Notes: a model not told the origin generated them from the letters alone. DNA of 64,000 bases from an uncultured bacterium (GCA_903875555.1 CAIQWN010000045.1:1535-65534), one strand, 5' to 3'; counted from the stretch's first letter, positions 1-53,571 are shown. Made by a program: numbers and translations.

Positions 1-996
1 TCTTTCTTTACTTTCTTCGTCAAAATATGAAAGATCACACCCTGAAAACTTCGAATGCTGAGAAAGATCCCAATTACCTCTTGCATGAACCCCTTCGAGC
101 TCCTTAAAACCACCTAACATCGCATAATTATATTCAATATCATAAGCATCGGTTGCATAATGTGCTAACTTTTCATGTTTAAACCAATTTAATCTACTTT
201 CTGGTATTCCATAATTTAAATAGAAAGCCCAACGATATTGATGCCATTCTTCATAAATATTTTTTGTTGCATTTCCACCATCAGTTTTTGGATTAAAAAA
301 ATATTGCATTTCCATTTGTTCAAATTCACGAGTTCTAAAAACAAATTGCTTTGCAACAATTTCATTTCTAAAAGCTTTACCAACTTGTGCAATACCAAAA
401 GGAAGCTTTGGATGAAGAGAATCAACTGTGTTTTTATATTGTAAATAAATACCACCACAAGTTTCTGGGCGAAGATACACAACGTTTTCTTCCGACAAAG
501 TATCAACTGGAGAACCAAGATTCGATTTCACCATCAATGAAAATCTTTTTGCTGGTGTTAAATCTGCACTTTTACAATTAGGACAAACCAGTTTCTTATC
601 GGCACGCAATTTATCAAGTTCTGTGTTTATCCATTCAATAGATTGCTTGTCCGCATTTATTCCAAACTCTTCAAGAACATGATCGGCGCGAAAGCGAGCC
701 TTACATTTACGACAATCAATTTGTGGATCATCAAAACCATCAACATGACCAGAGGCCTTCCAAGTTGTTGGATGCATAAAAATAGCACTATCAAGCAAAA
801 CCACATCCTCCCTCTCTTGTGCCATAGATTTTGTCCAAGCGGATTTAATATTATTTAAAAGTAATGTTCCATAATGACCGTAATCATAAATACCAGAAAG
901 GCCTCCATAAATTTCTGATGACTGATAAACAAAACCTCTACGTTTTAGTAAAGACACAATTGTTTCAAACCTTTCTTTCGGATCAATGTTATTCAT
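1..996 (-). CDS. glyQS: glycyl-tRNA synthetase (class II, alpha2 type), N-terminal ~330 aa; C-terminus lies beyond window start
   Basis: Manual minus-strand translation from the ATG at 996-994 gives MNNIDPKERFETIVSLLKRRGFVYQSSEIYGGLSGIYDYGHYG...FRNEIVAKQFVFRTREFEQMEMQYF, which matches GlyRS. It is not in the ORF track because it has no stop within the window. Confidence 0.8.
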   Translation of the reverse strand, partial: MNNIDPKERFETIVSLLKRRGFVYQSSEIYGGLSGIYDYGHYGTLLLNNIKSAWTKSMAQEREDVVLLDSAIFMHPTTWKASGHVDGFDDPQIDCRKCKARFRADHVLEEFGINADKQSIEWINTELDKLRADKKLVCPNCKSADLTPAKRFSLMVKSNLGSPVDTLSEENVVYLRPETCGGIYLQYKNTVDSLHPKLPFGIAQVGKAFRNEIVAKQFVFRTREFEQMEMQYFFNPKTDGGNATKNIYEEWHQYRWAFYLNYGIPESRLNWFKHEKLAHYATDAYDIEYNYAMLGGFKELEGVHARGNWDLSQHSKFSGCDLSYFDEESKER

Positions 997-1027
997 AAAC
1001 TTATTCTAACACAAAACTATTTATATA

Positions 1028-1363
1028 TTAATTACCAAACCATCCATCAAACATAGAATTAAGTAACTTAATAATTCCAGAAATAGAAAAAATAATAAAC
1101 AAACCTAATCCTCCCCAAAGCATGTGTGATTTCCCTTCATTTAAATCAGAATCTTTGTTTCCTTCTCTCAAACTATAAATAAAAGTAAGCATCCCCCACA
1201 AAAAATAAGTTGTTGTTATAACAATAAGTAATGTGAATATTGGATTTACTAATTGATCCATCACTCTTTCCCAAACAGTGTTGGTTGCACCAGCAATACC
1301 TTGTGCAGCCACAGAAAATATTCTTGATAAAATTAAAACGTAAAGTAAAGCAACTTTTTTCAT
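1028..1363 (-). CDS. small membrane protein: signal peptide followed by two TM helices (pilin-like topology); function unknown
   Basis: 111 aa: MKKVALLYVLILSRIFSVAAQ, then a hydrophilic segment, TM, a charged loop (REGNKDSDLNEGKSH) and a second TM. Topology only. Confidence 0.4.
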   Translation of the reverse strand: MKKVALLYVLILSRIFSVAAQGIAGATNTVWERVMDQLVNPIFTLLIVITTTYFLWGMLTFIYSLREGNKDSDLNEGKSHMLWGGLGLFIIFSISGIIKLLNSMFDGWFGN

Positions 1364-1412
1364 AAATATATTATATCAAATAAAACAAAAATTGTTGTTA
1401 ATAAAATAAAAA

Positions 1413-1440
1413 TCTCGCAACTATGCGAGATTTTTATTTT
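1413..1440 (-). terminator. intrinsic terminator hairpin downstream of rpsL
   Basis: tctcgca-acta-tgcgaga stem-loop flanked by T/A runs on both strands, immediately after the rpsL stop. Confidence 0.5.
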
Positions 1441-1876
1441 ATTTCTTCTTTGCTGCTACTGCTCCTGCCTTTGGACGCTTAGCTCCATAAAGTGATCTAC
1501 CTTGTCTACGAGCATCTACACCTGTTGCGTCTAGTCTTCCGCGAACAATGTGATAACGTACACCAGCCAAGTCCTTCACACGTCCTCCACGTAGCATAAC
1601 TACCGAGTGTTCTTGTAACTTGTGCTTTTCTCCTGGAATATAAGCTGTTACTTCAAGACCATTTGTTAAACGTACACGAGCAATTTTACGAAGAGCTGAG
1701 TTCGGCTTCTTTGGGGTTGTTGTTGTAACTTTTGTACAAACACCTCTCTTGAATGGTGAGTTATAAAAATTTGGACGATTTTGCACAGCATTAAAACCAC
1801 GACCCATAGCAATAGAGCGAGATTTTCTTCTGACTTGTGTGCGTCCTTTTTTAACTAATTGACTTACTGTTGGCAT
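1439..1876 (-). CDS. rpsL: 30S ribosomal protein S12
   Basis: 145 aa, [12 protein letters not shown]...[10 protein letters not shown]...VRYHIVRG: canonical uS12 sequence. Confidence 0.95.
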
Positions 1877-1930
1877 AATTTAATATTTGCAAACTATATC
1901 AAATAATATACATTAATGCAAGAAAACTAT

Positions 1931-2329
1931 TTAATCCTTTACTCCCATTACTTTATCCTTCATAAAATCATAAATAACAATTTTAGTTTTGTATATGATA
2001 ATATAATCCCCAATCTTTATATCCTTATAAAATTCGTTCTGATTTTTAAGTGTTATTGCATCTTGAACACGCTTCACACTTACAAGCCCATCTTGTGGTA
2101 AAATGACCTGTTTACTGACTTTATTCAAAATCTCCGACTCAGAAACGATAACGCTTTCACTAACAGTTTTATGTAAATAAAAATATAAAGACATTAAAAT
2201 TAAAACTAAAACAATACAAAAAATAAAATATTTGACTAGTTTGGGAAAAATTTTAGATAGTAAAAGATTTTTTAATACTTTCTTACCAAAATTCTTTACT
2301 TTAACTTTATAACGATAAAAAATCTTCAT
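1931..2329 (-). CDS. hypothetical membrane-anchored protein (single N-terminal TM)
   Basis: 132-aa ORF with a hydrophobic segment IFCIVLVLILMSLYFYL; no recognisable motif. Confidence 0.35.
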   Translation of the reverse strand: MKIFYRYKVKVKNFGKKVLKNLLLSKIFPKLVKYFIFCIVLVLILMSLYFYLHKTVSESVIVSESEILNKVSKQVILPQDGLVSVKRVQDAITLKNQNEFYKDIKIGDYIIIYKTKIVIYDFMKDKVMGVKD

Positions 2330-2381
2330 TCTCTTTATTATAAGCCATAAAATTAAACATGACTGTTTATAACTGAAGAAT

Positions 2382-3038
2382 TTATGACAGTATCTTCATT
2401 ACAACAGAAAACAAAAAAGGTGCCACATAAGAAAAAATAGTCGAAGCAACAATAATCGCAATAATTAAATACACTGGATTATAAACAACATTCGAAAAAC
2501 TATTTCTCAATCTTGGAAATAATGATTGTAATATAGACATTCCATCAAACGGTGGAATCGGCATCAAGTTAAACAAAGCGAGAGAAATATTTACACCTAT
2601 AATTGTAAACAAGGCACTACTTAATTTCATATCCAACATTCCATTTACAGAAAATACTTTAAAAAATATCATCGCTAATATAGCAAGTAAAATATTAGCG
2701 ATAACACCAGCAGCCGAAACAAATGTTTCTCCATACTTTCCTTCTACATTTCTTATGTTCACTGGTACGGGTTTTGCCCAACCAAGAAACATTCCAGACA
2801 TTGTAAATGAAAGTATCGGCACAAGAATTGAGCCAACAATATCAATGTGTGGAATCGGATTTAAAGTAAGTCGTCCCATTCTATAAGCAGTTTCGTCCCC
2901 TAAGATATAAGCAACGTATCCGTGCGCCACCTCGTGAATAATTATAGAAAATAAAATAACTAATATCGGAAAAATTGACTGAAAAATATTTAATGTGTCT
3001 AACATTCTTAAATAATACCACGAAATGAATTTTGTCAT
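2382..3038 (-). CDS. site-2 protease family zinc metalloprotease (peptidase M50)
   Basis: HEVAHG (HExxH) within a TM helix, polytopic membrane protein, about 218 aa. Confidence 0.75.
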   Translation of the reverse strand: MTKFISWYYLRMLDTLNIFQSIFPILVILFSIIIHEVAHGYVAYILGDETAYRMGRLTLNPIPHIDIVGSILVPILSFTMSGMFLGWAKPVPVNIRNVEGKYGETFVSAAGVIANILLAILAMIFFKVFSVNGMLDMKLSSALFTIIGVNISLALFNLMPIPPFDGMSILQSLFPRLRNSFSNVVYNPVYLIIAIIVASTIFSYVAPFLFSVVMKILS

Positions 3039-3062
3039 TCCTGCGAAAGCAGGAATCTAGTG
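3034..3062. repeat. palindromic dispersed repeat, copy 1 (GTCATTCC-TGC-GAAA-GCA-GGAATCTAGTG)
   Basis: gtcattcctgcgaaagcaggaatctagtg: 8-bp stem with a GAAA loop and conserved flanks gtc / ctagtg. Related copies lie at 5626, 23577, 49601 and 49984. Confidence 0.8.
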
Positions 3063-3162
3063 TGTTTGGTTTTCCTTACTTCGTTCTGCTTACTACACAC
3101 CACTTTTTCTATTGCATCTAAAATAAAATTGTGATAATATACCTAAACTAATCAATAAATCT

Positions 3163-3366
3163 ATGGCAAGCACATGTCCACTATGTCTAAAAGGTTCAAA
3201 AGTTGTTGGAAAATATAGCAACTCTGTTCGTGCTACAAAGTTTAATCCTTGTGGTGATCGTCGCGTATACCCAAACCTACAATGGGCTCGTATTCCAAAT
3301 GGACCTCGTGTAAAGATCTGTACTTCTTGTATGAAGCGCGGTCTACACCTACAGATTAAACTATAA
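3163..3366 (+). CDS. rpmB: probable 50S ribosomal protein L28 (bL28), zinc-ribbon form
   Basis: 67 aa, MASTCPLC...NSVRATKF...PNLQWARIPNGPRVKICTSCMKRG aligns with bL28 (C..TGK..GN.RSHA.N..KR...NLQ.VR....G..KRV.V....LKSG); four Cys. Confidence 0.5.
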   Translation: MASTCPLCLKGSKVVGKYSNSVRATKFNPCGDRRVYPNLQWARIPNGPRVKICTSCMKRGLHLQIKL

Positions 3367-3386
3367 GTTTAATCAACCAAAATTTA

Positions 3387-3413
3387 AAAGCGACACCCAA
3401 CGGTGTCGCTTTT
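3387..3413 (+). terminator. intrinsic terminator after the bL28 gene
   Basis: gcgacacc-caac-ggtgtcgc hairpin followed by ttttaaatttttt. Confidence 0.55.
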
Positions 3414-3428
3414 AAATTTTTTATATAA

Positions 3429-3932
3429 ATGTTAGGATTCCAATATTCGCTCACTTACAAGAAAGGTTGGAAAGGAAATATGAAAAAAATTATTTCTGGT
3501 ATGTTTTTGCAAGAGGTGCTGCTTCCAGCTATTGGATACGACACAGGAATTGGTGAAGTTGTTGTTATTCAACCAAAACAATTACAGCAAATGTTCACTG
3601 GGGTAATTTTCCCAAGGGAAGAGATTCATTTGTACGACGGTGTCAATGGTTATATTTTTGATGCGTATGGCGTTGCTTTTGTTTACAGTTTTGAAGAAAA
3701 CGAGACTTCACTTTCGTTCACAAAACAATATATGAACAGACAAGATTCAATCGACTACCACTTCAACAAGAAAGAAGGTAACGAGTGGATTGGCACATTT
3801 AACGGTAAAGCAACGGGAGCAGGATACTCCAGCTGTGTAATAAATGTCGTGTCGGATAAATTTCTTGATAGTAGCAGATTTGCTGACATACCACTTCCAC
3901 CAACCTCCGTAAATTATGTAAACATCACTTGA
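3429..3932 (+). CDS. hypothetical protein (likely start at MKKIIS, about 3480)
   Basis: 167-aa ORF with no recognisable motif; followed by overlapping hairpins at 3945-3990. Confidence 0.35.
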   Translation: MLGFQYSLTYKKGWKGNMKKIISGMFLQEVLLPAIGYDTGIGEVVVIQPKQLQQMFTGVIFPREEIHLYDGVNGYIFDAYGVAFVYSFEENETSLSFTKQYMNRQDSIDYHFNKKEGNEWIGTFNGKATGAGYSSCVINVVSDKFLDSSRFADIPLPPTSVNYVNIT

Positions 3933-4011
3933 ATTGTATGAGTAAAACCTCGCAACGAAACCACTTGTTGTGAGGTTTCGTTGTTTTTAACTAATTACCA
4001 ATGATCAATTA

Positions 4012-4995
4012 CTAATGACTCCCTCTCACTTCAAAACTTTTTCCATTCAAAATAAATTCAACATCTCCCAAATCAATCGTACTAAAAATTACTTTCCCAT
4101 ATTTCTTCAATCTTTCTATCGTTTCAATATTCGGATGTCCATATTTATTATCTTTTCCTGCACTTATCACCGCATAATAAGGTTTGATATAAGAAAGTAA
4201 TTGTTCACCACTAGAATTTTTACTTCCGTGATGTCCCGCTTTATAAATAGTCACATTCTCAGACAACAAATTACTCTCAATTAATTTATTTTCTCTTACA
4301 CTTGGCAAATCACCAGTAAATAAAAAAGTTTTATCTTGATAAGTGAGTAATATGCAGACCGACGCTTCATTTGTATCAGTCTTTGAAGAAAGATTTTGCA
4401 CAGGATACAAAACTTTTGCAATCACTCCATCATTAAAATCAATCTCATCACCAGTCTTTGCAATATAAACACGTGCCCCGTCGAAGCCTTTAGGCGAAGT
4501 GGGGTTCGCACCACCATTCTTTTCATTCCGTGTCCCGTCGGAGCTTTTAGCGGAGTGGGATTCAATTTCATTATCAAGCAAATTAAAAACCTCAGTCTTT
4601 CCTTTCACTGGCGACTCGATCACATTTTTCACATTATATTTTTCGAAAACCGGAATAAGTCCCGTTATATGATCCGCATCCGCATGAGTTGCCACCACTA
4701 CATCAATATCATTATCAAAAAATCCCATTTTACTATTTAACTTTTGCATCACTTTATTATTCGGACCACCATCGATTAACATTTGCTTGTGACTTGGTGT
4801 CTCGACAAAAATAGAATCCCCCTGTCCAACATCAAAAAATGTAACTGTCAGTTCTCCCTCGTTTGTTTTTATAAAAATAAAATACAAACAAACAAAAAGC
4901 ACAACAACTCCAACCGAAGCAAAAAATATTTTTCCATACTCCTCCAAAAATATCTTAACATTCTCAAACTTTTCTTTAAGCCAGTCATTAAGCAT
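4012..4995 (-). CDS. ComEC-type metallo-beta-lactamase domain protein with an N-terminal TM anchor (corresponds to the ComEC C-terminal domain)
   Basis: FFDVGQGDSIFVETPSHKQMLIDGGP...VVATHADADHITGL...YKAGHHGSKNSS is the ComEC lactamase-domain signature (LDVGQGDA...IDGG...HxDxDH...HHGS). Confidence 0.65.
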   Translation of the reverse strand: MLNDWLKEKFENVKIFLEEYGKIFFASVGVVVLFVCLYFIFIKTNEGELTVTFFDVGQGDSIFVETPSHKQMLIDGGPNNKVMQKLNSKMGFFDNDIDVVVATHADADHITGLIPVFEKYNVKNVIESPVKGKTEVFNLLDNEIESHSAKSSDGTRNEKNGGANPTSPKGFDGARVYIAKTGDEIDFNDGVIAKVLYPVQNLSSKTDTNEASVCILLTYQDKTFLFTGDLPSVRENKLIESNLLSENVTIYKAGHHGSKNSSGEQLLSYIKPYYAVISAGKDNKYGHPNIETIERLKKYGKVIFSTIDLGDVEFILNGKSFEVRGSH

Positions 4996-5049
4996 ACTTT
5001 TAGTATAACTCTCCTTGCTTCTTTATCATTAATCCGTTATCCTTTATTC

Positions 5050-5616
5050 ATGTTTGAACTTGACCTTCACTCCCTCATCTCCACATTCTCATATCTCGCC
5101 ATATTTCTTTTGCTTATCGTAAACGGTGCAGTTAACTTCCCTTCTTCACAAATTATTTATTTAATTGCCGGATATTTTATTGCAACAGGAAAACTTTCTT
5201 TTATTCCAACAATCATATCTGGCTCCATTGGTAACATAATCGGTAATCTAATAACTTATTTTCTAGTTTATAAATACGGAAAAGTTATTGTCACAAAATA
5301 TTTATATATCAAAGAAGATATTTTAAACAAAATGCATAAAGAATTCGAAGGTCGTGGGCTTATATTTTTATACATTGGCAAATTAACACCTTCACTTAAA
5401 GTTTTCATCCCAAGTGTCGCAGGACTTTCAAAAATAAAATATTCTCACGCTCTTTTTTTGTTTTCTATAACCTCAATCATCTGGTCATCAGCTATCGTTT
5501 ACATTGGTTACCTCTTCGGTGAACACATCACTTTCAAAAACTACTCAATCACCATGGGAATAGTCGGCATCGTCATCGCATTCATCGCTTATAAAAAATT
5601 CCAGAGTATAAAATAG
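5050..5616 (+). CDS. DedA/SNARE-associated (TVP38/TMEM64) family membrane protein
   Basis: Starts at the first ATG (5050), MFELDLHSL...; motifs IYLIAGYF...G..SF and ...YIGKLTPSLKVFIPSVAGLSKIKY. The 4783 start in the ORF track is an upstream extension. Confidence 0.65.
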   Translation: MFELDLHSLISTFSYLAIFLLLIVNGAVNFPSSQIIYLIAGYFIATGKLSFIPTIISGSIGNIIGNLITYFLVYKYGKVIVTKYLYIKEDILNKMHKEFEGRGLIFLYIGKLTPSLKVFIPSVAGLSKIKYSHALFLFSITSIIWSSAIVYIGYLFGEHITFKNYSITMGIVGIVIAFIAYKKFQSIK

Positions 5617-5625
5617 TCCTGTTTT

Positions 5626-5654
5626 GTCATTCCTGTGGAAACAGGAATCTAGTG
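5626..5654. repeat. palindromic dispersed repeat, copy 2
   Basis: gtcattcctgtggaaacaggaatctagtg: the stem carries compensatory changes (tgt/aca) relative to copy 1. It lies between convergent gene ends. Confidence 0.8.
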
Positions 5655-5660
5655 TCTAAA

Positions 5661-6107
5661 TTATCTATTATTTTTATAAATCACGTGAATCAGTTCGTTA
5701 TCATCACCCCTAATAATTTCTTTCATTATTTCCGGTCTTAAATCAACATCATCAATTTCCATATCATTAAATTCCTTAAAGTTTGAGCCTAAATTTAATT
5801 CATGTAGTTCCTCTGCTAAATAAACAAAGCAAATTTCATGAAAATATTTATCTGATCCTACACTAAAAAAGTTTTCAATTACAGCTCTCATTTTTACTTT
5901 CTCAAGATTAATCCCAACCTCTTCAAAAACTTCTCTTTTTGCTGCTTGTTCGGAAGACTCGTTTATTTTAACCCTTCCTCCAATAACAAAATAAAATCCT
6001 TCTGGGTTTTTCTCAAAAACATAACCATTTTTTGTTTTAATTAAAACAGCAACGCGTATGTTTAACTTTGTATCACCTAATTCAATTGTCAGATCTGTAT
6101 CTTTCAT
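5661..6107 (-). CDS. NUDIX hydrolase
   Basis: Nudix box GGRVKINESSEQAAKREVFEEVG. Confidence 0.75.
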   Translation of the reverse strand: MKDTDLTIELGDTKLNIRVAVLIKTKNGYVFEKNPEGFYFVIGGRVKINESSEQAAKREVFEEVGINLEKVKMRAVIENFFSVGSDKYFHEICFVYLAEELHELNLGSNFKEFNDMEIDDVDLRPEIMKEIIRGDDNELIHVIYKNNR

Positions 6108-6127
6108 AATACGAATAATATCACAAA

Positions 6128-7636
6128 CTAATACTTAATCACCACAAACTCTTCACCGTCCTCATCTACATATTTCTCTTCTTCCAATTTATTTTTCAAA
6201 ATAAAGTATAAAACCACAACCAAAACATAAATCAAAAACATAAACGATGAGGACAAATTACTTTGTATGTACGAAAACGGAAGTGAAGCAAAAAATGTCG
6301 CAATTAAAATAATAAATTTAAGAAGTAACGTTGTCACAAATCCAAAAATAACAGTAAGAAAAACACTTACAAATGAAAACAAAATCACCAAAGTAGAAAA
6401 TAACATTGCGACAGGAACAATCGGCACAATAATTAAATTCGTAATCAAAGAATAAATAGAAATAAATCCAAATGTGTAAATAATATATGGAAGAGTCGCA
6501 ATTGTTGCAGAAAGTGTCGTACTCAAAACCTCTTTCATAAATCTTAAATGTTTAAATCTCTCTAAAGATTTTGTAATTAATGGTGACAAATAAACAATTC
6601 CTGCTGTCGCCAAAAAAGAAAGATGAAATGAAACATTATCCAAAATAAAACTCGTATCGTAAATCACCATCACAAAAAGTGAAAGTATCAATGCTTGCTT
6701 CGAAACATATTCTCTTCCAGAATAAAGTGCAAGAAGTGAAATAAGGGCCATAACAAAAGCTCGCACAGCACTCGCTTCTGCTCCAACCATAATCACAAAC
6801 ATAAAAGTAAACAATCCGGTAAATAAAATTCTTAAAGTAAAAGGTAGTAAAGAGAACAACAAAAGCAGAAAAGAAACAACAATCGCAATATTAAAACCAG
6901 AAAGAACAACAATGTGCGATATTCCAGCAACACGAAACAAATCTTTCATCTCTTTCGAAAAATCATTACTTCCAAAAAGCATTCCGTTGGCAAGTGGCGA
7001 CACATCAGCACTTATATATTTATTTACACGAGAAATAAAATTATCTTTAACTGTGATTAATTTATAAATAAACTTGTTTGATATTTCTCCTTCCTTGTCT
7101 ATTTTTGGAAAAAACATTTCACCTTTTATTCCACGAGTTTTTAAATAATTATTATAATCAAAAGATTTTTTATTTACTTCTGTTGGAAGCAAAATATCAC
7201 TTTCTTTTATTTCTCCATCGATTGTAATTCTCTCGCCTGCTTTAAATTCTGGATATAAAGAAGTTTTTACTAATACATTAGCATAATTATTATTTTCTTT
7301 ATATAAAGTTATTTCAACTTCTTGATAATTATCTTTTTTAACTGGTGTATCAACTACTTCTCCATAAACAATACATTTGCTTTCGCAACTAAATATTTCT
7401 TTTTCAACCGCAAACTGATGACGAGCAACTCCAAGAAACAAACCAGAGCAAACCAACATTGTAATTAGTGGAACAATATAACTTTTCTCTTTTTTCTTAA
7501 AAACAAAAAATAAAATAGCCTGTACAAGCAAAACAACAAAAGAAAAAATTGCAATCTCCGTCGAGAATTGCAATTTTTCGGAAATAAAAATACCAACAAC
7601 GAAACTTAAAACAAAAATAACTGTTTTAACATGCAT
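6128..7636 (-). CDS. comEC: ComEC/Rec2 DNA-uptake channel, N-terminal DUF4131-like plus competence polytopic membrane domain (no lactamase domain in this ORF)
   Basis: 502 aa; N-terminal TMs, an OB-like region, then a multi-TM competence domain (GISHIVVLSGFNIAIV...). The lactamase domain is encoded separately at 4012-4995. Confidence 0.65.
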   Translation of the reverse strand: MHVKTVIFVLSFVVGIFISEKLQFSTEIAIFSFVVLLVQAILFFVFKKKEKSYIVPLITMLVCSGLFLGVARHQFAVEKEIFSCESKCIVYGEVVDTPVKKDNYQEVEITLYKENNNYANVLVKTSLYPEFKAGERITIDGEIKESDILLPTEVNKKSFDYNNYLKTRGIKGEMFFPKIDKEGEISNKFIYKLITVKDNFISRVNKYISADVSPLANGMLFGSNDFSKEMKDLFRVAGISHIVVLSGFNIAIVVSFLLLLFSLLPFTLRILFTGLFTFMFVIMVGAEASAVRAFVMALISLLALYSGREYVSKQALILSLFVMVIYDTSFILDNVSFHLSFLATAGIVYLSPLITKSLERFKHLRFMKEVLSTTLSATIATLPYIIYTFGFISIYSLITNLIIVPIVPVAMLFSTLVILFSFVSVFLTVIFGFVTTLLLKFIILIATFFASLPFSYIQSNLSSSFMFLIYVLVVVLYFILKNKLEEEKYVDEDGEEFVVIKY

Positions 7637-10470: not shown

Positions 10471-11961
10471 TTATTTCACCTTAAACTGTTTACGAATTTC
10501 TTTGACCTTTTCAATATTTTTTTCTTCCATTTCTTCTTTTCCTTTCTCCCCTAACTTCTTTAACTCTGAAATATCTAAAGAAATCAATTCTTTTGCGCGA
10601 TTATCCAAATATTCTTCTGTGTTTTTCTTTGGGTTTTCCAAAACCTCATCAAACAATGCATGTAAAACAAACCCAATTTTTGGTCCCGGTGTTTCTTGTG
10701 TAACACTCATTATTCTTTCTCCGTTTGTTTTTAGCATTTTTAACGAAATCGGATCTTGAAGTGCTTGTTCGATCATTGATTCATACATTCTTAATCTGTA
10801 CGGTTCTTCTTTTGGTCTTCCTGTCCCTATTCTATCGCATATACGAAGATTAACTAGATCCCATACCTTGTCTTTACCAACATTTACAATCAATCTGCGA
10901 ACAGCACTTATTGTTATTTGTTCTGTGTCACTAAAAAACATATGCCAACGTACCATAATTGATACAGTATCGATTAACTCCTTAGAAAACTTTAATCTTT
11001 CCATAATTACGCGCGTTACACGTGAACCAACAACCTCGTGACCATAAAACGTGTGTTGTTTTGTGTCTTTTATAAATCTACGTGTTTCTGGTTTAGAAAT
11101 ATCATGAAAAATAGCCGCTAAACGAATATGTAATGCAAGTTTTTTATCAGCAGAATGTTGCAATGTCTTTAAATTATGTTCCCAAACATCAAAACTATGT
11201 GCCTGGTTCTGTGTAACCCCTACTCCACGAAGCAACTCCGGAACAATAAATTGAAGTAAATTTAAATCTTTTAATAAAGTAATCCCTCTCATAGGAAAAT
11301 CTGTCATAATAAGTTTAGAAAATTCATCCCTGATTCTTTCACGTGAAATACTATTAAGTAAATTGGAATTCCTTTCCACACTTTCACGTGTAACAGATTC
11401 TAAATCAAAATCAAGCTGACAAACAAAACGAACAGCACGCATAAGTCTGAGAGAATCTTCTTGGAACCTCTTGTCTGGATCACCAACCGCTCTTAAAACC
11501 TTATTTTCTAAGTCCTTTTTACCACCAAACAGATCTACTGTTTCTTGTGAAATAGGATTATACGCCATTGCATTCACAGTAAAATCACGTCTTTTTAGAT
11601 CATCTTCAATATTTTGACTCCACCCTACTTGATCAGGATGTCTTTTATCTGAATATTCCCCTTCTAAACGATATGGAGTAACTTCAACTATTCTTATGGT
11701 CTCATTAGAACAAATAGTTCCTATCTCTTCTCCACAAGTAACAACACCAACTGTACCATATATATTTTCATAGAAAGTTTTTGGAAACAGGCTTATAATT
11801 TGTTCAGGTGTGGCGTTTGTGGTTACATCATAATCTTTTGGTTTTATACCCATAAACAAATCACGAACACAACCACCAACAAGAAAAGCTTCATAGTCAG
11901 CACCTTGAAGTACCGCAATAACCATACTTATCTCTTTTGGTATTTCGTTATTATTTATCAT
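10471..11961 (-). CDS. cca: CCA-adding tRNA nucleotidyltransferase / poly(A) polymerase family with HD domain
   Basis: GGCVRDLFMG..KDYDV head domain and a C-terminal HD (IFHDISKP). Confidence 0.75.
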   Translation of the reverse strand: MINNNEIPKEISMVIAVLQGADYEAFLVGGCVRDLFMGIKPKDYDVTTNATPEQIISLFPKTFYENIYGTVGVVTCGEEIGTICSNETIRIVEVTPYRLEGEYSDKRHPDQVGWSQNIEDDLKRRDFTVNAMAYNPISQETVDLFGGKKDLENKVLRAVGDPDKRFQEDSLRLMRAVRFVCQLDFDLESVTRESVERNSNLLNSISRERIRDEFSKLIMTDFPMRGITLLKDLNLLQFIVPELLRGVGVTQNQAHSFDVWEHNLKTLQHSADKKLALHIRLAAIFHDISKPETRRFIKDTKQHTFYGHEVVGSRVTRVIMERLKFSKELIDTVSIMVRWHMFFSDTEQITISAVRRLIVNVGKDKVWDLVNLRICDRIGTGRPKEEPYRLRMYESMIEQALQDPISLKMLKTNGERIMSVTQETPGPKIGFVLHALFDEVLENPKKNTEEYLDNRAKELISLDISELKKLGEKGKEEMEEKNIEKVKEIRKQFKVK

Positions 11962-11991: not shown

Positions 11992-12063
11992 GCTTTCGTG
12001 GTGAAATGGATATCACATCGGTCTTCGGAACCGTTGTTCCAGGTTCGAATCCTGGCGAAAGCA
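11992..12063 (+). tRNA. tRNA-Arg (anticodon TCG, tentative)
   Basis: Hand-folded cloverleaf: acceptor gctttcg/cgaaagc, D-stem gtga/tcac, anticodon loop cTTCGga, T-arm ccagg-ttcgaat-cctgg. The anticodon stem has a U27-U43 mismatch. No CCA is encoded. Confidence 0.55.
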
Positions 12064-12141
12064 CAAACTCTTTTTAATTTTTATCCTATTTTTTACTTTC
12101 AATTCTCGTATCTCACACAAATACATCGAATTATTCTTTTG

Positions 12142-12212
12142 TGCGGCGTACGAGAATCGAACTCGTGTCTCATCCTTGGCAAGGACGTATTCTACCACTA
12201 AACCAACACCGC
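12142..12212 (-). tRNA. tRNA-Gly (GCC)
   Basis: Minus strand reads GCGGTGTTGGTTTAGTGGTAGAATACGTCCTTGCCAAGGATGAGACACGAGTTCGATTCTCGTACGCCGCA. Confidence 0.85.
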
Positions 12213-12315
12213 GAATAATAATTATATTATCACAAATAAAAGTAAATAAAAAGCTAATATATTGCTACTGTTTATTTTAAAAACCATTAAAAATAAATAG
12301 TATACTATGAAAAAC

Positions 12316-12346
12316 TGTGGATAAACCTGTGGTAACTGTTGATAAG
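12316..12346 (+). promoter_or_regulatory. cluster of three tandem DnaA-box-like motifs (TGTGGATAA, TGTGGTAA, TGTTGATAA)
   Basis: cTGTGGATAAac cTGTGGTAAc TGTTGATAAg at about 11-bp spacing; the first is a perfect DnaA box. Confidence 0.35.
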
Positions 12347-12505
12347 AGACAGTAAAATACATATGAGGCAAACTATACAGACATTGCCCTTAATTGTGAA
12401 ATATCATTGTAAACTAAGGATATTTCACAAAAAGACTGACTCTTTTATAAAGGAAAATCTATAAACGTGTCACGTGAAACGTTTCATAAGAAACGAATAA
12501 TAAAA

Positions 12506-12892
12506 ATGGCAAAACATAATGAAATAGGTAAAATAGGAGAAAACATAGCAAAAACCTTTTTAATAAGAAGTGGTTTCATTGTGGTGACTATGAACGAAAA
12601 ATTTAAATTTGGTGAAATAGATATAATTGCTGAAAAAGACAATATTTTGCACTTTGTTGAGGTAAAAAGTGTTAAAATAAGAGACAGTTCCAATATAAAA
12701 ACTTTAAAAATAAAACCTGAAGATAATTTAACTTTTTGGAAAAAATTTAAATTCAAAAGAGCAATTAATTTATATTTAATAAACAATAGTAATCTCAAAA
12801 ATAAAAAATTACAAATCGATCTCATTTGTGTTTATATAAATCAAAAAACAAGGGAGGGGAGAGTGAAAATTTTTGAAAACATAGAATTATAA
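12506..12892 (+). CDS. YraN/UPF0102 family endonuclease
   Basis: GKIGENIAKTFL..SGF and ...GEIDIIA...HFVEVK. The first ATG is at 12506; the ORF-track start at 12467 is a GTG. Confidence 0.55.
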   Translation: MAKHNEIGKIGENIAKTFLIRSGFIVVTMNEKFKFGEIDIIAEKDNILHFVEVKSVKIRDSSNIKTLKIKPEDNLTFWKKFKFKRAINLYLINNSNLKNKKLQIDLICVYINQKTREGRVKIFENIEL

Positions 12893-12945
12893 AAAGGTAG
12901 TAATTGTAGAAAAATATGTTAGAATTAGATTTAGTTTAGATATTT

Positions 12946-13018
12946 CGGAGTGTGGTGTAACGGCTAACATTCTGGTTTTGGGTACCAGCGACTCAGGGTT
13001 CGAATCCCTGCACTCCGA
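12946..13018 (+). tRNA. tRNA-Pro (TGG)
   Basis: CGGAGTG acceptor start typical of tRNA-Pro, anticodon loop tTTGGGt, T-arm cagggttcgaatccctg. Confidence 0.8.
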
Positions 13019-13020
13019 CA

Positions 13021-13060
13021 AAATAACAAAAACCCTTCAAACGAAGGGTTTTTGTTATTT
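13021..13060 (+). terminator. 18-bp-stem intrinsic terminator after tRNA-Pro
   Basis: aaataacaaaaacccttc-aaac-gaagggtttttgttattt: a perfect 18-bp stem. Confidence 0.6.
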
Positions 13061-13111
13061 TGTCGACACTAGAAATTTTTCTATAAATAAGATATAATCT
13101 ACTGGTGATTT

Positions 13112-13182
13112 GCGGTGTTGGTTTAGTGGTAGAATGCCTGCCTTCCAAGCAGGAGACAAGAGTTCGATTCTCTTACGCCGCA
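13112..13182 (+). tRNA. tRNA-Gly (TCC)
   Basis: GCGGTGTTGGTTTAGTGGTAGAATGCCTGCCTTCCAAGCAGGAGACAAGAGTTCGATTCTCTTACGCCGCA. Confidence 0.85.
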
Positions 13183-14356: not shown

Positions 14357-14758
14357 TTATAAAATAAGGAACTTTTCTAAAACTTCTTTCTGATTTGAAT
14401 ACATTAAATATTTCTCTAGGTCTTCTTTCTTGGAAACCAAAACGAAATCTGATATTTCGTGGTTTATTTTAATTTCTTGATCTGACACGACAGATGCAGT
14501 ATAAAAAATAAAAACTTTTGGAATTTTGTGAATGTTATGAGAAACACTGACTGAAATTAATTTTTGATCAACACAATCAACACCAAGCTCTTCTTTTATC
14601 TCGCGGATTAAACCTTCTTCGAGTTGTTCATCAACATTTAATCTTCCACCTGGAAGTATCCACTCATCTTGTCCTTTTTCTTTCACAATAACAAAAGAAT
14701 TTTTATATTTCAAAATCACCTTTTGTGTTACTTGTCCAAAAAAATGTTCTTCTTTCAT
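14357..14758 (-). CDS. NUDIX hydrolase
   Basis: Nudix box GGRLNVDEQLEEGLIREIKEELGV; probable start at the internal ATG at 14758. Confidence 0.7.
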   Translation of the reverse strand: MKEEHFFGQVTQKVILKYKNSFVIVKEKGQDEWILPGGRLNVDEQLEEGLIREIKEELGVDCVDQKLISVSVSHNIHKIPKVFIFYTASVVSDQEIKINHEISDFVLVSKKEDLEKYLMYSNQKEVLEKFLIL

Positions 14759-14762
14759 AAAT

Positions 14763-15002
14763 TTAATCTGTTTTTCTTCTACCCCAGTGAATGTGTGACC
14801 AGATTCTTTCGTGAAAATAATAAAGTATGGTACTGTAACCATTAACAACTGCAACGATTCCCGCTGAAACAACAACATTATGAGTAAAAAAATATGCAGC
14901 GATAGAATCTGCTGTAATACTTAACATGCGATAAGTAATTGACTTAACTACTGAACGATGATTATTCTCAAGTGTTTTATTTTTAATATAAATTTGTTCC
15001 AT
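14763..15002 (-). CDS. small membrane protein (DUF2061-like)
   Basis: 79 aa with two hydrophobic helices, 4 nt upstream of the NUDIX start. Confidence 0.35.
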   Translation of the reverse strand: MEQIYIKNKTLENNHRSVVKSITYRMLSITADSIAAYFFTHNVVVSAGIVAVVNGYSTILYYFHERIWSHIHWGRRKTD

Positions 15003-23510: not shown

Positions 23511-23641
23511 AACACAAGAGCGACATCGTTAGATGTCGCTCTTGTGTTTTATATTTTTTATTTTTAAATTCTAGACACTGGATTCCCGCTTTCGCGGGAA
23601 TGACACCCAATAACGGAGGAATGTTTACGTCAGCCAAGGCA
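23511..23641. repeat. composite repeat copy 2 (hairpin 23511-23548; ggaggaatgtttacgtcagccaaggca 23615-23641), interrupted by palindromic repeat copy 3 (23577-23605)
   Basis: Same two modules as 20623-20701, but the spacer is 66 bp instead of 14 bp and contains cactggattcccgctttcgcgggaatgac. Confidence 0.7.
23577..23605. repeat. palindromic dispersed repeat, copy 3 (reverse orientation; stem attcccgc/gcgggaat)
   Basis: cactggattcccgctttcgcgggaatgac: compensatory T>C and A>G changes keep the 8-bp stem. Confidence 0.8.
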
Positions 23642-29494: not shown

Positions 29495-30250
29495 TTAAAA
29501 CTCTAGAACCACAGGACAGTGATCACTTCCAAACATATTATCTAATATATTTGCTTTCTTTATTTTCTTTTCTAAAACTTTTGAGATGAAAATATAATCA
29601 ATACGCCAGCCAACATTTCTGTCTCTTGCTCTGGTTTGCATATCCCACCATGTATATTTTATTTTATCTCCATTTATAAAACGAAATGTATCAGTAAAAT
29701 CCTTCACAAAATTTGCAAGACGAGAACGTTCGTCATCTGTACAACCAAGCTTTCCTTTATTTTCTTTTGGACGAGCAAGATCAATGTCGGCAACTGTCGC
29801 ATTTATATCTCCACAAAAAATAACTGGTTTTATTTTTTCTAATTTCTTGGCACGTTTTAAAAATTGATCATAATAATCTAGTTTATATAAAAAATGTTCA
29901 TGCGACTTTCCTCCGTTTGGAAAATAACAATTCATAAAAACAAAATCTTTGAAATATAAAGTAACAAGCCTGCCCTCCATATCCATTTTATCTTTACCTA
30001 ATCCATACTCAACCTTCTCTGGTTTTTCTTTACAATAAACTGCCACACCAGAATATCCTTTTCTAATTTTTGAACTATCGAAATAAGAAAAATATCCTTT
30101 TATGTTTATAATTTCATCAGTGAGTTGCATAGGTTCTGCCTTTGTTTCTTGAATAGCCAATATATCAGGAGACAATTTCAAAACCTCTTTCCAGTTTTCT
30201 TTTTTTGTTACAGCTCGTATTCCGTTCACATTCCAAGAAATAATTTTCAT
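29495..30250 (-). CDS. xth: exodeoxyribonuclease III (AP endonuclease)
   Basis: MKIISWNVNG..., ExoIII/APE1 family length and motifs. Confidence 0.9.
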   Translation of the reverse strand: MKIISWNVNGIRAVTKKENWKEVLKLSPDILAIQETKAEPMQLTDEIINIKGYFSYFDSSKIRKGYSGVAVYCKEKPEKVEYGLGKDKMDMEGRLVTLYFKDFVFMNCYFPNGGKSHEHFLYKLDYYDQFLKRAKKLEKIKPVIFCGDINATVADIDLARPKENKGKLGCTDDERSRLANFVKDFTDTFRFINGDKIKYTWWDMQTRARDRNVGWRIDYIFISKVLEKKIKKANILDNMFGSDHCPVVLEF

Positions 30251-30745: not shown

Positions 30746-31705
30746 TCAATCTTTACCTTTTTTCTTTCCATGAAACTTTTCATATTGATCACGAAGGAAT
30801 TTGTTAGTTACGTTGGTATATATTTGTGTGGTGGCAATAGAGGCGTGCCCCAACATTAATTGAACAGTTCTCAAATCAGCTCCGTTATACAAAAGATCTG
30901 TCGCAAATGAGTGACGAAGAACGTGTGGTGTACACTTTTTTGAAATACCTGCCATCACAGAATATTTTTCTACTGTTCTTTCCACACTTCTTGGAGTAAG
31001 CCTAATAGATTCTTCTTTTTGCATTCTACTAATAGCACGAGGGGAATGATCAATAAACATTGCTTCATCGATATCAACTCTTTCTTCTAAATATTTTTTT
31101 ACACATTCATTTGCTGAATGAGAAATAAAAACCACTCGAATTTTTCCACCTTTACCTCGCACAGAGATTTCTCCATTTTTAAAATCAGTATCTCTGTCTA
31201 ATGAACAAAGTTCCGAAACACGAAGACCTGTCGAAAATAAAAGCTCAAGCATTGCTTTATCTCTTTTTCCAGAGATTGTTTTTGTGTCGGGTGCGTTTAA
31301 TAATTCATTTAGTTCTCTGTCAGAAATCAAATCGAGTTCTCTTTGAACAGTTTTGGCAAGTTCGATTCTTTCTGGGTCGTAACACTGTACACCTCTTTTT
31401 CTCATATATTTAAGAAAGGCACGAAGGGCAATCAAGTGATAGTTCTGAGTTTTTTTATTTAAAGTTTCTGTTTGTTGTCCCTTCTTTGCTTCGCGAGCAG
31501 AAAGACGATTTAAATACACACGATACTCTCGCATCATTGCTTCCGTTATATCTTGAGGTGCTTCAACTTTTACAAATTCTAAAAAACGATTTAAATAGTG
31601 ATCATAATTGCGAACAGTTAAGACTGAGCGACCTTTTTCTATTTCTAAATATTGAAGATAATCAAATTTAAGTGAAGGAAGTGAGTGCATACAATAATTA
31701 TACAT
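30746..31705 (-). CDS. tyrosine recombinase XerC/XerD family
   Basis: C-terminal HVLRHSFATDLL...LGHASIATTQIYT catalytic R-H-R-Y region. Confidence 0.8.
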   Translation of the reverse strand: MYNYCMHSLPSLKFDYLQYLEIEKGRSVLTVRNYDHYLNRFLEFVKVEAPQDITEAMMREYRVYLNRLSAREAKKGQQTETLNKKTQNYHLIALRAFLKYMRKRGVQCYDPERIELAKTVQRELDLISDRELNELLNAPDTKTISGKRDKAMLELLFSTGLRVSELCSLDRDTDFKNGEISVRGKGGKIRVVFISHSANECVKKYLEERVDIDEAMFIDHSPRAISRMQKEESIRLTPRSVERTVEKYSVMAGISKKCTPHVLRHSFATDLLYNGADLRTVQLMLGHASIATTQIYTNVTNKFLRDQYEKFHGKKKGKD

Positions 31706-53570: not shown

Positions 53571-53571
53571 C

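Follow-up and report, generated by a model that had tools for sequence, protein, structure and literature searches.

The locus described here lies in a 64,000-nucleotide stretch of DNA from an uncultured bacterium (GCA_903875555.1 CAIQWN010000045.1:1535-65534), referred to below as the window. It encodes ComEC in two intact genes, one for the channel part (ComEC-N) and one for a membrane-anchored nuclease part (ComEC-C) with a metallo-beta-lactamase (MBL) domain. As in native ComEC, the N-terminal part (6128-7636) precedes the C-terminal part (4012-4995) on the minus strand; a NUDIX gene (-), a palindrome and a DedA gene (+) lie between them (Table 1). The initial annotation had described this gene order, the identity of both parts, including the N-terminal transmembrane (TM) helix of the MBL protein, and the positions of the NUDIX gene, the DedA gene and the repeat copies. 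All of this was borne out by gene order, Pfam, TIGR00361 and the hydrophobic-helix call, and the domain searches that it had recommended on both open reading frames recovered Competence, DUF4131 and Lactamase_B. A tblastn search of the window and Pfam scans of its other large open reading frames revealed no further Competence or ComEC-type MBL domain.

Table 1. Features of the split comEC locus, in coordinates of the window
Feature	Coordinates	Strand	Description
Palindromic repeat copy 1	3030..3063		8-bp stem, GAAA loop; flanked by the genes for M50 peptidase (-) and L28 (+)
Terminator-like hairpin	3945..3978		Where the MBL gene and the gene for a 167-aa hypothetical protein converge
ComEC-C, 327 aa	4012..4995	-	Lactamase_B (PF00753) 1.8e-15; TIGR00361 positions 419-659, 1e-29
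GC-rich in-frame insertion	4472..4563	-	Variable MBL surface loop; a 57-nt unit present in two diverged copies
Divergent intergenic region, 54 nt	4996..5049		Between DedA and MBL starts
DedA/VTT-family membrane protein, 188 aa	5050..5616	+	Pfam VTT_dom 3.3e-13
Palindromic repeat copy 2	5622..5655		8-bp stem, GGAA loop; in the 44-nt gap between convergent DedA and NUDIX ends
NUDIX hydrolase	5661..6107	-	Pfam NUDIX 1.5e-12; intact Nudix box GRVKINESSEQAAKREVFEEVGI
ComEC-N, 502 aa	6128..7636	-	Pfam Competence 1.1e-43, DUF4131 8.2e-12

ComEC-N starts with three TM helices, followed by a periplasmic OB fold (DUF4131) and the Competence channel, and ends in an acidic tail on the cytoplasmic side. 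The Competence profile (PF03772) matched over model positions 7-268 of 270 with 150 bits (cut-off 23), and DUF4131 (PF13567) with 45.6 bits (cut-off 31.6). Three hydrophobic helices precede residue 74, and the AF2 model (pLDDT 88) consists of helices at residues 2-74, strands at 88-185 and helices up to residue 485. Residues 151-447 were aligned by phmmer with residues 159-462 of the cryo-EM structure of ComEC (30bt_A, E = 3.2e-20), and Foldseek returned a weak match to the ComEC OB domain 9iew (rank 21, probability 0.96, E = 0.26). The best 120 homologues were all stand-alone proteins of 484-548 aa with the same two domains.

ComEC-C consists of a cytoplasmic N-terminal helix, one TM helix, which is the equivalent of the last TM helix in fused ComEC, and an extracytoplasmic MBL nuclease domain of the ComEC type. 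A single N-terminal hydrophobic helix was detected at residues 23-41; in the AF2 model (pLDDT 92) the helix spans residues 2-44. The metal-binding residues H104-x-D/E-x-D108-H109, D229, H255 and H256 are kept in 81-82 of 82 MBL sequences, the HxDxDH-type site reading HADADH in the window. The cytoplasmic N-terminal segment is conserved as well, with Y20-G21-K22 present in at least 90% of the sequences in a 118-sequence family alignment of close relatives. The best NCBIfam match was the C-terminal third of TIGR00361 (ComEC_Rec2) with 103.2 bits. Sequence matches in the PDB were exclusively to ComEC (30bt_A, 2.7e-25, residue 28 in the TM helix corresponding to chain residue 514). The top Foldseek match of the model was the crystal structure of the ComEC beta-lactamase-like domain (9ic4, E = 6.8e-24, TM-score 0.86), and the next match was worse by ten orders of magnitude.

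It is therefore highly improbable that 4012-4995 encodes a different MBL-fold enzyme with no part in ComEC, such as a B3 beta-lactamase, an RNase Z/J-like protein or a defence nuclease of the Avs1a or 6A-MBL type. Weak partial NCBIfam matches to Avs1a (72 bits), the AHM B3-like family (59 bits) and 6A-MBL (31 bits) point in that direction, but they stay far under the cut-offs of 420, 590 and 220 bits, respectively, and are weaker than the match to ComEC. Furthermore, the gene has no adjacent protease or NTPase partner and sits in housekeeping synteny. Membership in subclass B3, Avs1a or 6A-MBL was rejected on the curated cut-offs. Grouping of the protein with MBL families other than ComEC, together with an intact second comEC, had been named as the outcome that would overturn the annotation; the protein groups with ComEC MBL domains, and no intact comEC was found in the window or in close relatives.

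The insertion in the MBL surface loop contains direct repeats (4472-4507 and 4529-4563) that are 80-86% alike at a spacing of 56-57 nt. It adds 26 amino acids compared to homologues and is the sole low-confidence part of the model (pLDDT <50 at residues 157-164). As the identical protein was found on seven contigs from several samples, the insertion is not an assembly error. The hairpin at 3945..3978 was called on the plus strand, where a T-run comes after its 14-pair stem; read on the opposite strand, past the MBL stop codon, it is followed by TTTTAC.

The best 120 homologues of ComEC-C were stand-alone proteins without exception (259-378 aa), and the stand-alone MBL proteins at 70 genome loci measured 275-348 aa. 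We define a Patescibacteria stand-alone ComEC-C family by a length of ~280-330 aa, one N-terminal TM helix, a ComEC-type MBL domain and the lack of a Competence domain, and the window protein belongs to it.

Taken together, the two halves amount to 829 aa, or ~803 aa without the loop insertion, compared to 801 aa for the solved ComEC. They are colinear on TIGR00361 (663 positions), where ComEC-N occupies 76-409 and ComEC-C 419-659, and on 30bt_A, where ComEC-C matches from residue 514 onward. The whole-protein equivalog cut-off of TIGR00361 (190 bits) is reached by neither half (84.0 bits for ComEC-N), and the plain sum of the two scores, 187 bits, is close to it. The modules are separated by intervening and opposite-strand genes, so the locus does not encode ComEC/Rec2 as a single polypeptide. 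When the junction was aligned with fused ComECs of Chloroflexota, both the stop of one gene and the start of the other fell inside a short basic linker that joins the last Competence helix to the helix ahead of the MBL domain. Since this linker is cytoplasmic and precedes the last helix, each piece can enter the membrane alone and no canonical residue is missing.

The initial annotation had regarded both genes between the halves as inserted. This holds for the NUDIX gene, a recent, strain-level addition, and fails for DedA, which is old and clade-wide. The VTT domain (PF09335) scored 50.6 bits (cut-off 33.9), and NCBIfam UptA/DedA matches remained under their cut-offs (UptA equivalogs 47 vs 250 bits). 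The mechanically called open reading frame, 4783-5616, is over-extended, the real gene being 5050-5616. With DedA on the opposite strand between the halves, diverging together with the MBL gene from a short shared intergenic region, the window falls into a clade with nine other species-level genome loci that is monophyletic in the MBL tree. The wedged DedA was recovered by phmmer in 9/9 of these loci (7e-46 to 5e-64). Its junctions are tight: 8/9 loci have -7 to 44 nt between DedA and the ComEC-N stop, and in 8/9 the MBL start lies 26-144 nt from DedA, with an estimated overlap in one (L010). DedA also adjoins the MBL gene in three further relatives.

As DedA stands on the opposite strand in the break, the MBL gene should have a promoter of its own and be transcribed independently of the channel gene. 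Judging from gene orientation, the two ComEC genes would thus form separate transcription units, and the 54-nt region ahead of the MBL gene would have to hold its promoter. A promoter-like site was found at 5029-5002 (-), such sites being no commoner than in shuffled sequences.

The NUDIX gene (PF00293, 48 bits, cut-off 21; the box fits Gx5Ex7REUxEExGU) reached no NCBIfam equivalog. It starts 20 nt downstream of ComEC-N and is probably co-transcribed with it. No NUDIX gene occupies this slot in the nine other loci of the DedA clade or in three additional loci (L087-L089), and the gene is a strain-specific, recent addition. It shares 28% identity with the second NUDIX protein of the window.

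The palindrome GTCATTCCTGCGAAAGCAGGAATC occurs at 3034-3057, at 5626-5649 with three mismatches, and in more copies at 23581 and 49988; these four matches compare with none in 100 shuffles. Relative to copy 1, copy 2 has both members of the closing pair altered (C-G to T-A) and still has a GNRA loop; it contains no T-run and received no terminator call. The repeat was found in none of 82 relatives' loci, including those that share the L28-M50-S12 synteny, and at least 120 unrelated contigs from metagenomes (30-72% GC) carry the same 31-mer. The palindrome is a dRS3-like element that occurs across phyla and has no connection with the ComEC split; copy 2 is specific to the window strain, and copy 1 is no part of the ComEC system. 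The proposal that copy 1 bounds the whole segment was therefore dropped, the L28-M50-S12 synteny being ancestral.

The break was then compared across 80 related genome loci, of which 70 encode a stand-alone MBL protein, nine a fused ComEC and one a truncated fused ComEC (L084). The labels of the split loci are nearly all of Patescibacteria type or plain "bacterium"; the fused loci (780-845 aa) and L084 all carry labels of Chloroflexota classes or orders. The split is present in every Patescibacteria locus examined, down to ~35% identity. Of the 70 split loci, 42 have the halves side by side or with a single gene between them; in 12 loci they are directly adjacent, on the same strand and in N-to-C order with nothing inserted. 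In one other clade a superoxide dismutase gene occupies the slot, and a relative at 50% identity shares the order RecJ-RNaseH-ComEC-N-DedA(-)-MBL-L28-M50-S12. Gene arrangement tracks the MBL tree.

These data refute one of the two scenarios offered initially, in which NUDIX and DedA entered between repeat copies, broke an intact comEC and left decaying fragments. Two unrelated genes and a palindrome between the halves, with a second palindrome copy 2.6 kb away, gave the idea its appeal; as a recent event it is extremely unlikely. Both open reading frames are of full length with conserved motifs, and the same break is found in every Patescibacteria relative, including the 12 loci without an insert. 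DedA is clade-wide, the repeats belong to a generic element that the relatives lack, and L28 and the MBL gene, which lie between the repeat copies, are in ancestral synteny. The other scenario, a lineage-specific split architecture, is strongly supported. Two-gene ComEC is the old, usual arrangement across Patescibacteria and not fresh damage. We put the probability at roughly 70% that the locus encodes a ComEC of two subunits, nuclease and channel, whose genes are transcribed separately, and that this is the standard form of ComEC in Patescibacteria (CPR bacteria).

As to how the arrangement arose, we favour fission of a fused ancestral ComEC. The opposite direction, in which Patescibacteria kept a primitive, pre-fusion state and the single chain arose by later fusion elsewhere, appears unlikely but deserves serious consideration. 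A published ancestral-state reconstruction gave a Competence-only origin with Lactamase_B gained later (PMC6299819). The 12 loci with adjacent, same-strand genes in N-to-C order also resemble a pre-fusion state, and the fused Chloroflexota sequences fall among the split ones, not outside them, in a midpoint-rooted NJ tree of the MBL domain that has neither outgroup nor support values. On the other hand, fused ComEC is reported in several phyla, including Firmicutes, Actinobacteria and Gammaproteobacteria (PMC6299819), the split is confined to Patescibacteria in the present sample, and the helix of the split MBL protein can be aligned with the one that comes before the MBL domain in fused ComEC.

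Twenty-eight of the 70 split loci contain no ComEC-N; halves were called unlinked where at least 3 kb was seen upstream of the MBL gene, with locus flanks of up to 8 kb. Tight co-expression is thus not required. The unlinked genes would also fit a functional uncoupling, with the stand-alone MBL protein acting as an autonomous membrane-anchored surface nuclease that feeds environmental DNA into nucleotide salvage and has ceased to be a stoichiometric partner of the channel. Among the 31 loci without a ComEC-N match (the 28 unlinked ones and three with short flanks), an adenylate-kinase-like gene follows 3' of the MBL gene on the same strand in 19 (median gap 18 nt), and a nucleoside diphosphate kinase gene in seven (median gap 4 nt). 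The NUDIX gene in the window slot, the in vitro activity of isolated ComEC nuclease domains (PMC12455585; PMC13539106) and the proposal that CPR bacteria, which lack nucleotide synthesis, scavenge DNA (PMC6744442) agree with this. We nevertheless consider uncoupling rather improbable. The MBL protein has retained a TM helix homologous to the last ComEC helix as well as the conserved Y20-G21-K22, and the halves are close neighbours in the larger part of the split loci. Their pairwise identities are correlated (r = 0.90 in 37 genomes, reached by 0/2000 Mantel permutations), as would also be expected for any two vertically inherited genes in the same genomes. In Saccharibacteria, the com system is dispensable for growth and required for transformation (PMC10633639). 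Moreover, salvage and a role as channel partner can coexist.

In the two-subunit reading, which we prefer, ComEC-N would provide the three N-terminal helices, an extracytoplasmic OB-fold DNA-binding domain and the Competence channel, and ComEC-C, as a single-pass protein of N-in/C-out topology, the last canonical ComEC helix and the beta-lactamase-like nuclease. The subunits may assemble in trans, pairing non-covalently in the membrane through this helix and the OB-fold/nuclease contact of the cryo-EM structure. At the mouth of the channel, the predicted nuclease would degrade one strand of the DNA, and its complement would enter the cell for recombination or nucleotide salvage. In ComEC, the OB fold and the MBL domain are periplasmic; a flexible linker holds the MBL domain, and a small conserved OB-MBL interface positions it (PMC13539106). 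The nuclease domain performs better in vitro with the OB fold on the same chain (PMC12455585), and a split ComEC could accordingly be less efficient. In a cultivated Saccharibacterium, deletion of comEC abolishes natural transformation (PMC10633639). As the two-gene form is normal and old in Patescibacteria, the organism has probably retained DNA import.

The module order is identical to that of canonical single-chain ComEC/Rec2 (Bacillus subtilis; Moorella, PDB 30bt and 9ic4; TIGR00361), that is, three TM helices, OB fold, Competence channel, last TM helix and an HxDxDH-type MBL domain. Total length is about equal, the metal-binding residues are conserved and the MBL fold is closely similar to 9ic4. 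Unlike the canonical protein, ComEC is here divided between two polypeptides, the break lying in the cytoplasmic linker ahead of the last helix, and their genes are apparently transcribed separately with an opposite-strand gene between them.

ComEC-N belongs to fam000603, the CPR ComEC family without MBL fusion (Meheust et al., 2019; PMC6744442). This family was reported in 86% of CPR genomes, and the ComEC-MBL fusion as "essentially absent in CPR" (PMC6744442). The missing fusion has thus been known since 2019; that work gives its absence, with no statement that the MBL domain lives on in a gene of its own, often a neighbour, whose product is membrane-anchored. Full-text literature searches returned no explicit account of an MBL partner retained as a separate gene in CPR. 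Taken alone, ComEC-N fits exactly the "DC" profile (DUF4131 + Competence) of Pimentel & Zhang (2018), which was scored as loss or non-gain of Lactamase_B. Their survey scored only Competence-containing proteins, whereas the "missing" domain is encoded next door here; the words "separate", "split" and "adjacent" are not used in their text.

The MAG0480-family ComEC-like proteins of Mycoplasma (NF045979) are likewise short and lack the MBL domain. The window's ComEC-N covers 27-455 of the 461 model positions and is not a member, as its 60 bits are far under the 150-bit cut-off; unlike in that family, an MBL partner encoded in trans exists here. Other ComEC variants lack the MBL domain or depend on a separate nuclease, as in Streptococcus pneumoniae, where ComEC works with EndA. 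There, too, the channel protein leaves strand degradation to a second polypeptide, and EndA is likewise membrane-bound (PMC12455585). EndA, however, is a non-homologous replacement, whereas the separate nuclease described here is the MBL domain of ComEC, which has kept a ComEC helix of its own. The separate MBL gene is a division of one protein, not a substitution.

The two pieces of ComEC lie on the minus strand, which holds most genes in the first 12 kb of the AT-rich window (GC 32%). They stand in N-to-C order with a NUDIX gene, a palindromic repeat and a DedA gene between them, a layout that the initial annotation had described correctly in every particular. The domain searches proposed there recovered DUF4131 and Competence on the upstream ORF (ComEC-N) and Lactamase_B on the downstream ORF (the metallo-beta-lactamase or MBL protein). 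No further ORF with a Competence domain or a ComEC-type MBL domain was found within the 64-kb window. Because an opposite-strand gene (DedA) separates ComEC-N from MBL, the channel gene and the nuclease gene necessarily belong to separate transcription units. A promoter scan returned 17 sites, compared to 18 ± 6.5 in shuffled sequences, and no promoter is claimed from it.

Features of the comEC locus and of other regions of the window
Feature	Position	Strand	Remarks
Palindrome, copy 1	3030-3063		
Terminator-like hairpin	3945-3978		
MBL protein, 327 aa	4012-4995	-	one N-terminal hydrophobic helix; Lactamase_B 1.8e-15
In-frame insertion in MBL gene	4472-4563	-	GC-rich; two diverged copies of a 57-nt unit
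Extended N-terminus of MBL protein	4930-4995		
Divergent spacer DedA/MBL, 54 nt	4996-5049		
DedA/VTT gene, 188 aa	5050-5616	+	mechanical ORF start at 4783 is over-extended
Gap NUDIX/DedA, 44 nt	5617-5660		contains palindrome copy 2 (5622-5655)
NUDIX hydrolase, 148 aa	5661-6107	-	1.5e-12; Nudix box intact
Gap ComEC-N/NUDIX, 20 nt	6108-6127		
ComEC-N, 502 aa	6128-7636	-	DUF4131 8.2e-12; Competence 1.1e-43
Acidic C-terminal tail of ComEC-N	6128-6200		
CCA-adding-enzyme-like ORF	10471-11961		
Four tRNA genes	11992-13182	both	clustered
Second NUDIX, exonuclease/endonuclease/phosphatase-family and tyrosine recombinase genes	14357-14878; 29495-30250; 30746-31705	-; -; -	
Palindrome, copies 3 and 4	23581-23604; 49988-50011	-; -	
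ComM/YifB-like AAA+ protein	33603-35153	+	ChlI, Mg_chelatase and Mg_chelatase_C domains
Several large ORFs near the VirB4/TraG-like gene	42465-47485		no Pfam match
VirB4/TraG-like P-loop ATPase and two T4SS-pilin-like small membrane proteins	50773-52593; 53554-54438; 1028-1363	+; +; -	TraG P-loop match 1e-27
dnaA and dnaN, adjoining yidC	57046-59743; 55783-56502	+; -	

Each of the two proteins is one half of a single ComEC, and no part is missing. On the model TIGR00361 (663 positions), ComEC-N covered positions 76-409 and the MBL protein 419-659. ComEC-N aligned by phmmer to residues 159-462 of the cryo-EM ComEC 30bt_A (801 aa; 3.2e-20), and the MBL protein aligned to the same chain from residue 514, starting inside its own TM helix (2.7e-25). 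Together, the two chains comprise 829 aa, or approximately 803 aa when a lineage-specific loop insertion of 26 aa is subtracted. Alignment of the junction with fused ComECs placed the stop and start codons in the cytoplasmic linker, short and basic, that joins the last helix of Competence to the helix preceding the nuclease domain; the MBL protein is thus an N-in/C-out single-pass protein that kept the last ComEC helix.

All PDB sequence matches of the MBL protein were ComECs. Its AlphaFold model (pLDDT 92) consists of a helix (residues 2-44) followed by the MBL fold. The best structural match found by Foldseek was the crystal structure 9ic4, ComEC's beta-lactamase-like domain (E 6.8e-24, target-normalised TM-score 0.86, rmsd 2.8 Å), and the next match was ten orders of magnitude worse. 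The possibility, raised at the outset, that this protein groups with non-ComEC families is contradicted by these matches, and a beta-lactamase or Avs1a-type identity was rejected on the agreement of the PDB sequence, Foldseek and NCBIfam searches. The metal site (H104-A-D-A-D108-H109, D229, H255-H256) is nearly invariant across 82 related sequences. All canonical ComEC modules are present, and the catalytic residues are intact and have been conserved over the long term.

The same division was found in the relatives. The MBL protein's 120 best homologues (259-378 aa) all stood alone, and the 120 best homologues of ComEC-N (484-548 aa) all contained Competence without an MBL domain, most of them together with DUF4131. 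Many homologue pairs were located on one contig (e.g., of 142,539, 254,025, 78,701, or 37,740 nt), and the taxonomic placement rests on labels among the relatives such as Nomurabacteria, Paceibacterota, and Parcubacteria. A genome scan with one genome per species, in which ORFs were called and scored with HMMs of both halves, yielded 80 loci. A stand-alone MBL of 275-348 aa was present in 70 of them, nearly all labelled Patescibacteria-type or plain 'bacterium'. Fused ComECs (780-845 aa) were found in nine loci; these, as well as L084 with a truncated one, were all labelled as Chloroflexota classes or orders. The comparison of comEC neighbourhoods suggested in the initial annotation thus bears out its idea of a lineage-specific split architecture. 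Its other reading, a comEC disrupted by insertion, did not hold, as the split is the normal state of the lineage; a recent insertional disruption was rejected since the Patescibacteria loci surveyed share the split. A frameshift or assembly error was likewise rejected, as the identical MBL protein occurs on seven contigs from several samples; gene order agreed at all four places displayed. We put the probability that the window encodes a conserved two-gene ComEC at about 0.97. The window's instance is an ordinary member of its lineage, with the full lineage ComEC tool-kit present.

Among the 70 split loci, the halves were adjacent in 12 (gap ≤60 nt, some overlapping), separated by an opposite-strand DedA gene in nine (ten with the window), by an opposite-strand Fe/Mn superoxide dismutase gene in 12 (Sod_Fe_C 7e-24), and by other cargo in seven. 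ComEC-N was absent from 28 loci (≥3 kb of sequence visible on the upstream side of MBL, and flanks of at most 8 kb), and for two the upstream sequence was too short to tell. These arrangements track the MBL tree (neighbour joining, no support values), in which the DedA group including the window forms one clade. The DedA gene is tightly wedged in this clade: the distance from the ComEC-N stop to the DedA stop was -7 to 44 nt in eight of the nine other loci, and that from the DedA start to the MBL start was 26-144 nt, likewise in eight of nine, with an estimated overlap in L010. A relative at 50% identity (775-kb contig) has the window's gene order, namely RecJ ... RNase H - ComEC-N - DedA (opposite strand) - MBL ... 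L28 - M50 - S12. A functional link between DedA and ComEC was considered and set aside, as only the position is conserved and the whole region is syntenic anyway.

The superoxide dismutase group (L015, L017, L022, L023, L031-L033, L044, L046, L056, L068, L081) is a second Patescibacteria clade with the same slot between the halves, and its inserted gene of about 190 aa mirrors the opposite-strand DedA of similar length (~190 aa) in the window's clade. In L089, no ComEC-N gene was called within the locus; a 1327-aa protein without a Pfam match (417-4400) occupies the expected site upstream of DedA and MBL.

Pairwise identities of the two halves were correlated with r = 0.90 over 37 genomes (reached by 0 of 2000 Mantel permutations), and with 0.87 when the DedA clade was left out. 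This in-step divergence shows a shared vertical history, although it would be expected of any two vertically inherited genes.

The serious rival to a joint function is an autonomous nuclease for nucleotide salvage, which could also operate alongside it. It is favoured by the 28 loci in which the genes are unlinked and by the genes 3' of MBL on the same strand: among 31 loci without a ComEC-N match, 19 have an adenylate-kinase-like gene there (ADK 4.9e-12, median gap 18 nt) and seven a nucleoside diphosphate kinase gene (NDK 2e-36, median gap 4 nt). This linkage suggests a connection to nucleotide salvage, and also that the MBL gene stayed and ComEC-N moved. The 31 loci comprise L030 (3973-5088), L085 (8821-9441), and 29 others; M50, L28, S12, and S7 lie further downstream, as in the window.

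No strain other than that of the window was found to carry NUDIX in the slot; its contigs come from several samples. The gene was rejected as a recent duplicate of the other NUDIX of the window (28% identity). In relatives closer to the window (55-59% identity), the slot is filled differently: L088 (4212-5974) has a RelB/YafQ toxin-antitoxin pair along with a GNAT acetyltransferase, L087 (839-2319) and L089 have small genes of unknown kind, and L007 (4959-7390) has a MurD-like ligase. The slot behaves as a local hotspot where genes are gained, and the DedA-MBL pair stays constant.

Within the MBL gene, the in-frame insertion lengthens a variable surface loop by approximately 26 aa; this is the sole region that the model predicts with low confidence. 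A shorter insertion occupies that loop in the closest relative (74% identity). Extension and conservation mark both facing termini in the DedA clade. The C-terminus of ComEC-N is an acidic tail (...EEKYVDEDGEEFVVIKY) whose E487 and T488 are each present in ≥90% of sequences, and the MBL protein starts with an extended helix with Y20-G21-K22, just before the TM helix, also in at least 90%. Fused ComECs and most of the aligned adjacent-gene loci have only a short linker at this place.

The palindrome GTCATTCCTGCGAAAGCAGGAATC occurs in four copies in the window (3034, 5626, 23581, 49988) and in none of 100 shuffles. It was absent from all 82 relatives' loci tested, so it is much younger than the split. 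Exact matches to a version of about 31 nt (TGTCATTCCYGCGAAAGCRGGAATCYAGTGT) were found in at least 120 metagenome contigs; the 80 contigs fetched (L090-L169) had a GC content of 30 to 72% and unrelated flanks. The element has the form ATTCCC-N8-GGGAAT, which probably corresponds to the neisserial dRS3 consensus. A Neisseria paper contains the 24-mer of copy 3 verbatim. In copy 2, the closing pair is changed on both sides (C-G to T-A), keeping the hairpin and its GNRA loop. No Rfam family was matched (best FtrB, 19.6 bits versus a gathering score of 66), and a terminator was not called, as there is no T-run. The palindrome is a generic cross-phylum element that marks no insertion boundary. Its earlier interpretation as the boundary of the segment therefore fails, and a mobile-element insertion between two palindromes was rejected on synteny, absence in relatives, and cross-phylum occurrence. 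Its sequence is exactly conserved across very different genomes.

RecJ and RNase H are encoded just upstream of ComEC-N, and a ComM/YifB-like protein is encoded elsewhere in the window. The ComM/YifB-type family is tied to the integration of transforming DNA in other bacteria. All three are compatible with the processing of imported DNA. The VirB4/TraG-like and pilin-like genes resemble the type IV secretion locus known from Patescibacteria. As dnaA and dnaN lie beside yidC, the window probably includes the replication origin region. The tRNA cluster follows just past the CCA-adding-enzyme-like ORF.

As to the direction of evolution, fission of a fused ComEC is favoured, because fused ComEC has been reported from several phyla (PMC6299819), the sample examined shows the split in Patescibacteria alone, and the split MBL protein retains the ComEC helix. 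However, the MBL tree is unrooted, and according to a published reconstruction the lactamase domain was gained late (PMC6299819). In that study (Pimentel & Zhang, 2018), only Competence-containing proteins were scored and the profiles read as domain gains and losses; its text makes no mention of split or adjacent genes (PMC6299819). Competence-only surveys record a 'loss of nuclease domain' in these bacteria, but here the domain is encoded next door. Before it is claimed which lineages degrade the non-transported strand, one therefore has to look for a partner gene at other sites. Méheust et al. (2019; PMC6744442) reported this ComEC family from 86% of CPR genomes, with the MBL fusion all but missing in CPR. 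Reviews do no more than note the presence of ComEC. The JGI pipeline names many stand-alone MBLs 'competence protein ComEC', so annotators have implicitly met them already. In the literature, of which our coverage is incomplete, we found no explicit description of a retained membrane-anchored partner, its synteny, or the recurrent wedge genes.

We consider it fairly likely that the channel and nuclease parts jointly import DNA. The subunits would probably re-associate in the membrane, and the nuclease would cut one DNA strand at the channel mouth while the other is imported. In the solved ComEC, the nuclease domain sits on a flexible linker, and a contact that it makes with a loop of the OB fold, small but conserved, sets its position (PMC13539106). 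Such a contact does not depend on covalent continuity. Speculatively, the extended termini of the DedA clade could serve as docking elements.

A further reading takes the split as an adaptive, phylum-wide re-engineering. With its own promoter for the nuclease, a nucleotide-auxotrophic cell could set the ratio of nuclease to channel and switch between 'feeding' (bulk DNA degradation at the surface, coupled to nucleotide kinases or NUDIX) and 'transformation' (a single nuclease docked to each channel). Single genes of stress or nucleotide metabolism would have landed repeatedly at the break point, and the DedA-clade tails would re-join the halves as docking elements. The genes found in the slot are DedA, superoxide dismutase, NUDIX, a toxin-antitoxin pair, and GNAT. 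Taken jointly, these propositions seem unlikely to hold.

Patescibacteria have no nucleotide synthesis, and imported DNA is believed to sustain them. The presence of an intact two-part ComEC with links to nucleotide kinases and NUDIX bears on this idea and on natural transformability, on which the sole genetic system for Patescibacteria is built.

Recent structures and biochemistry argue that OB fold and nuclease cooperate within one chain, and a phylum-wide natural split is a direct test of the importance of the covalent linkage and of which contacts suffice. A Foldseek search of the ComEC-N model against the PDB gave nothing significant (best E 0.05, to MCM OB folds; the ComEC OB domain 9iew at rank 21), in a structure set that evidently has no full-length ComEC, and the phmmer match to 30bt_A is relied on instead. 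ComEC-N starts with three hydrophobic helices; a beta-rich OB region comes next, and then a bundle of helices that reaches residue 485. The solved ComEC has eleven helices, three of which precede a periplasmic OB fold, and its nuclease domain is periplasmic too (PMC13539106); the predicted topology of ComEC-N is the same.
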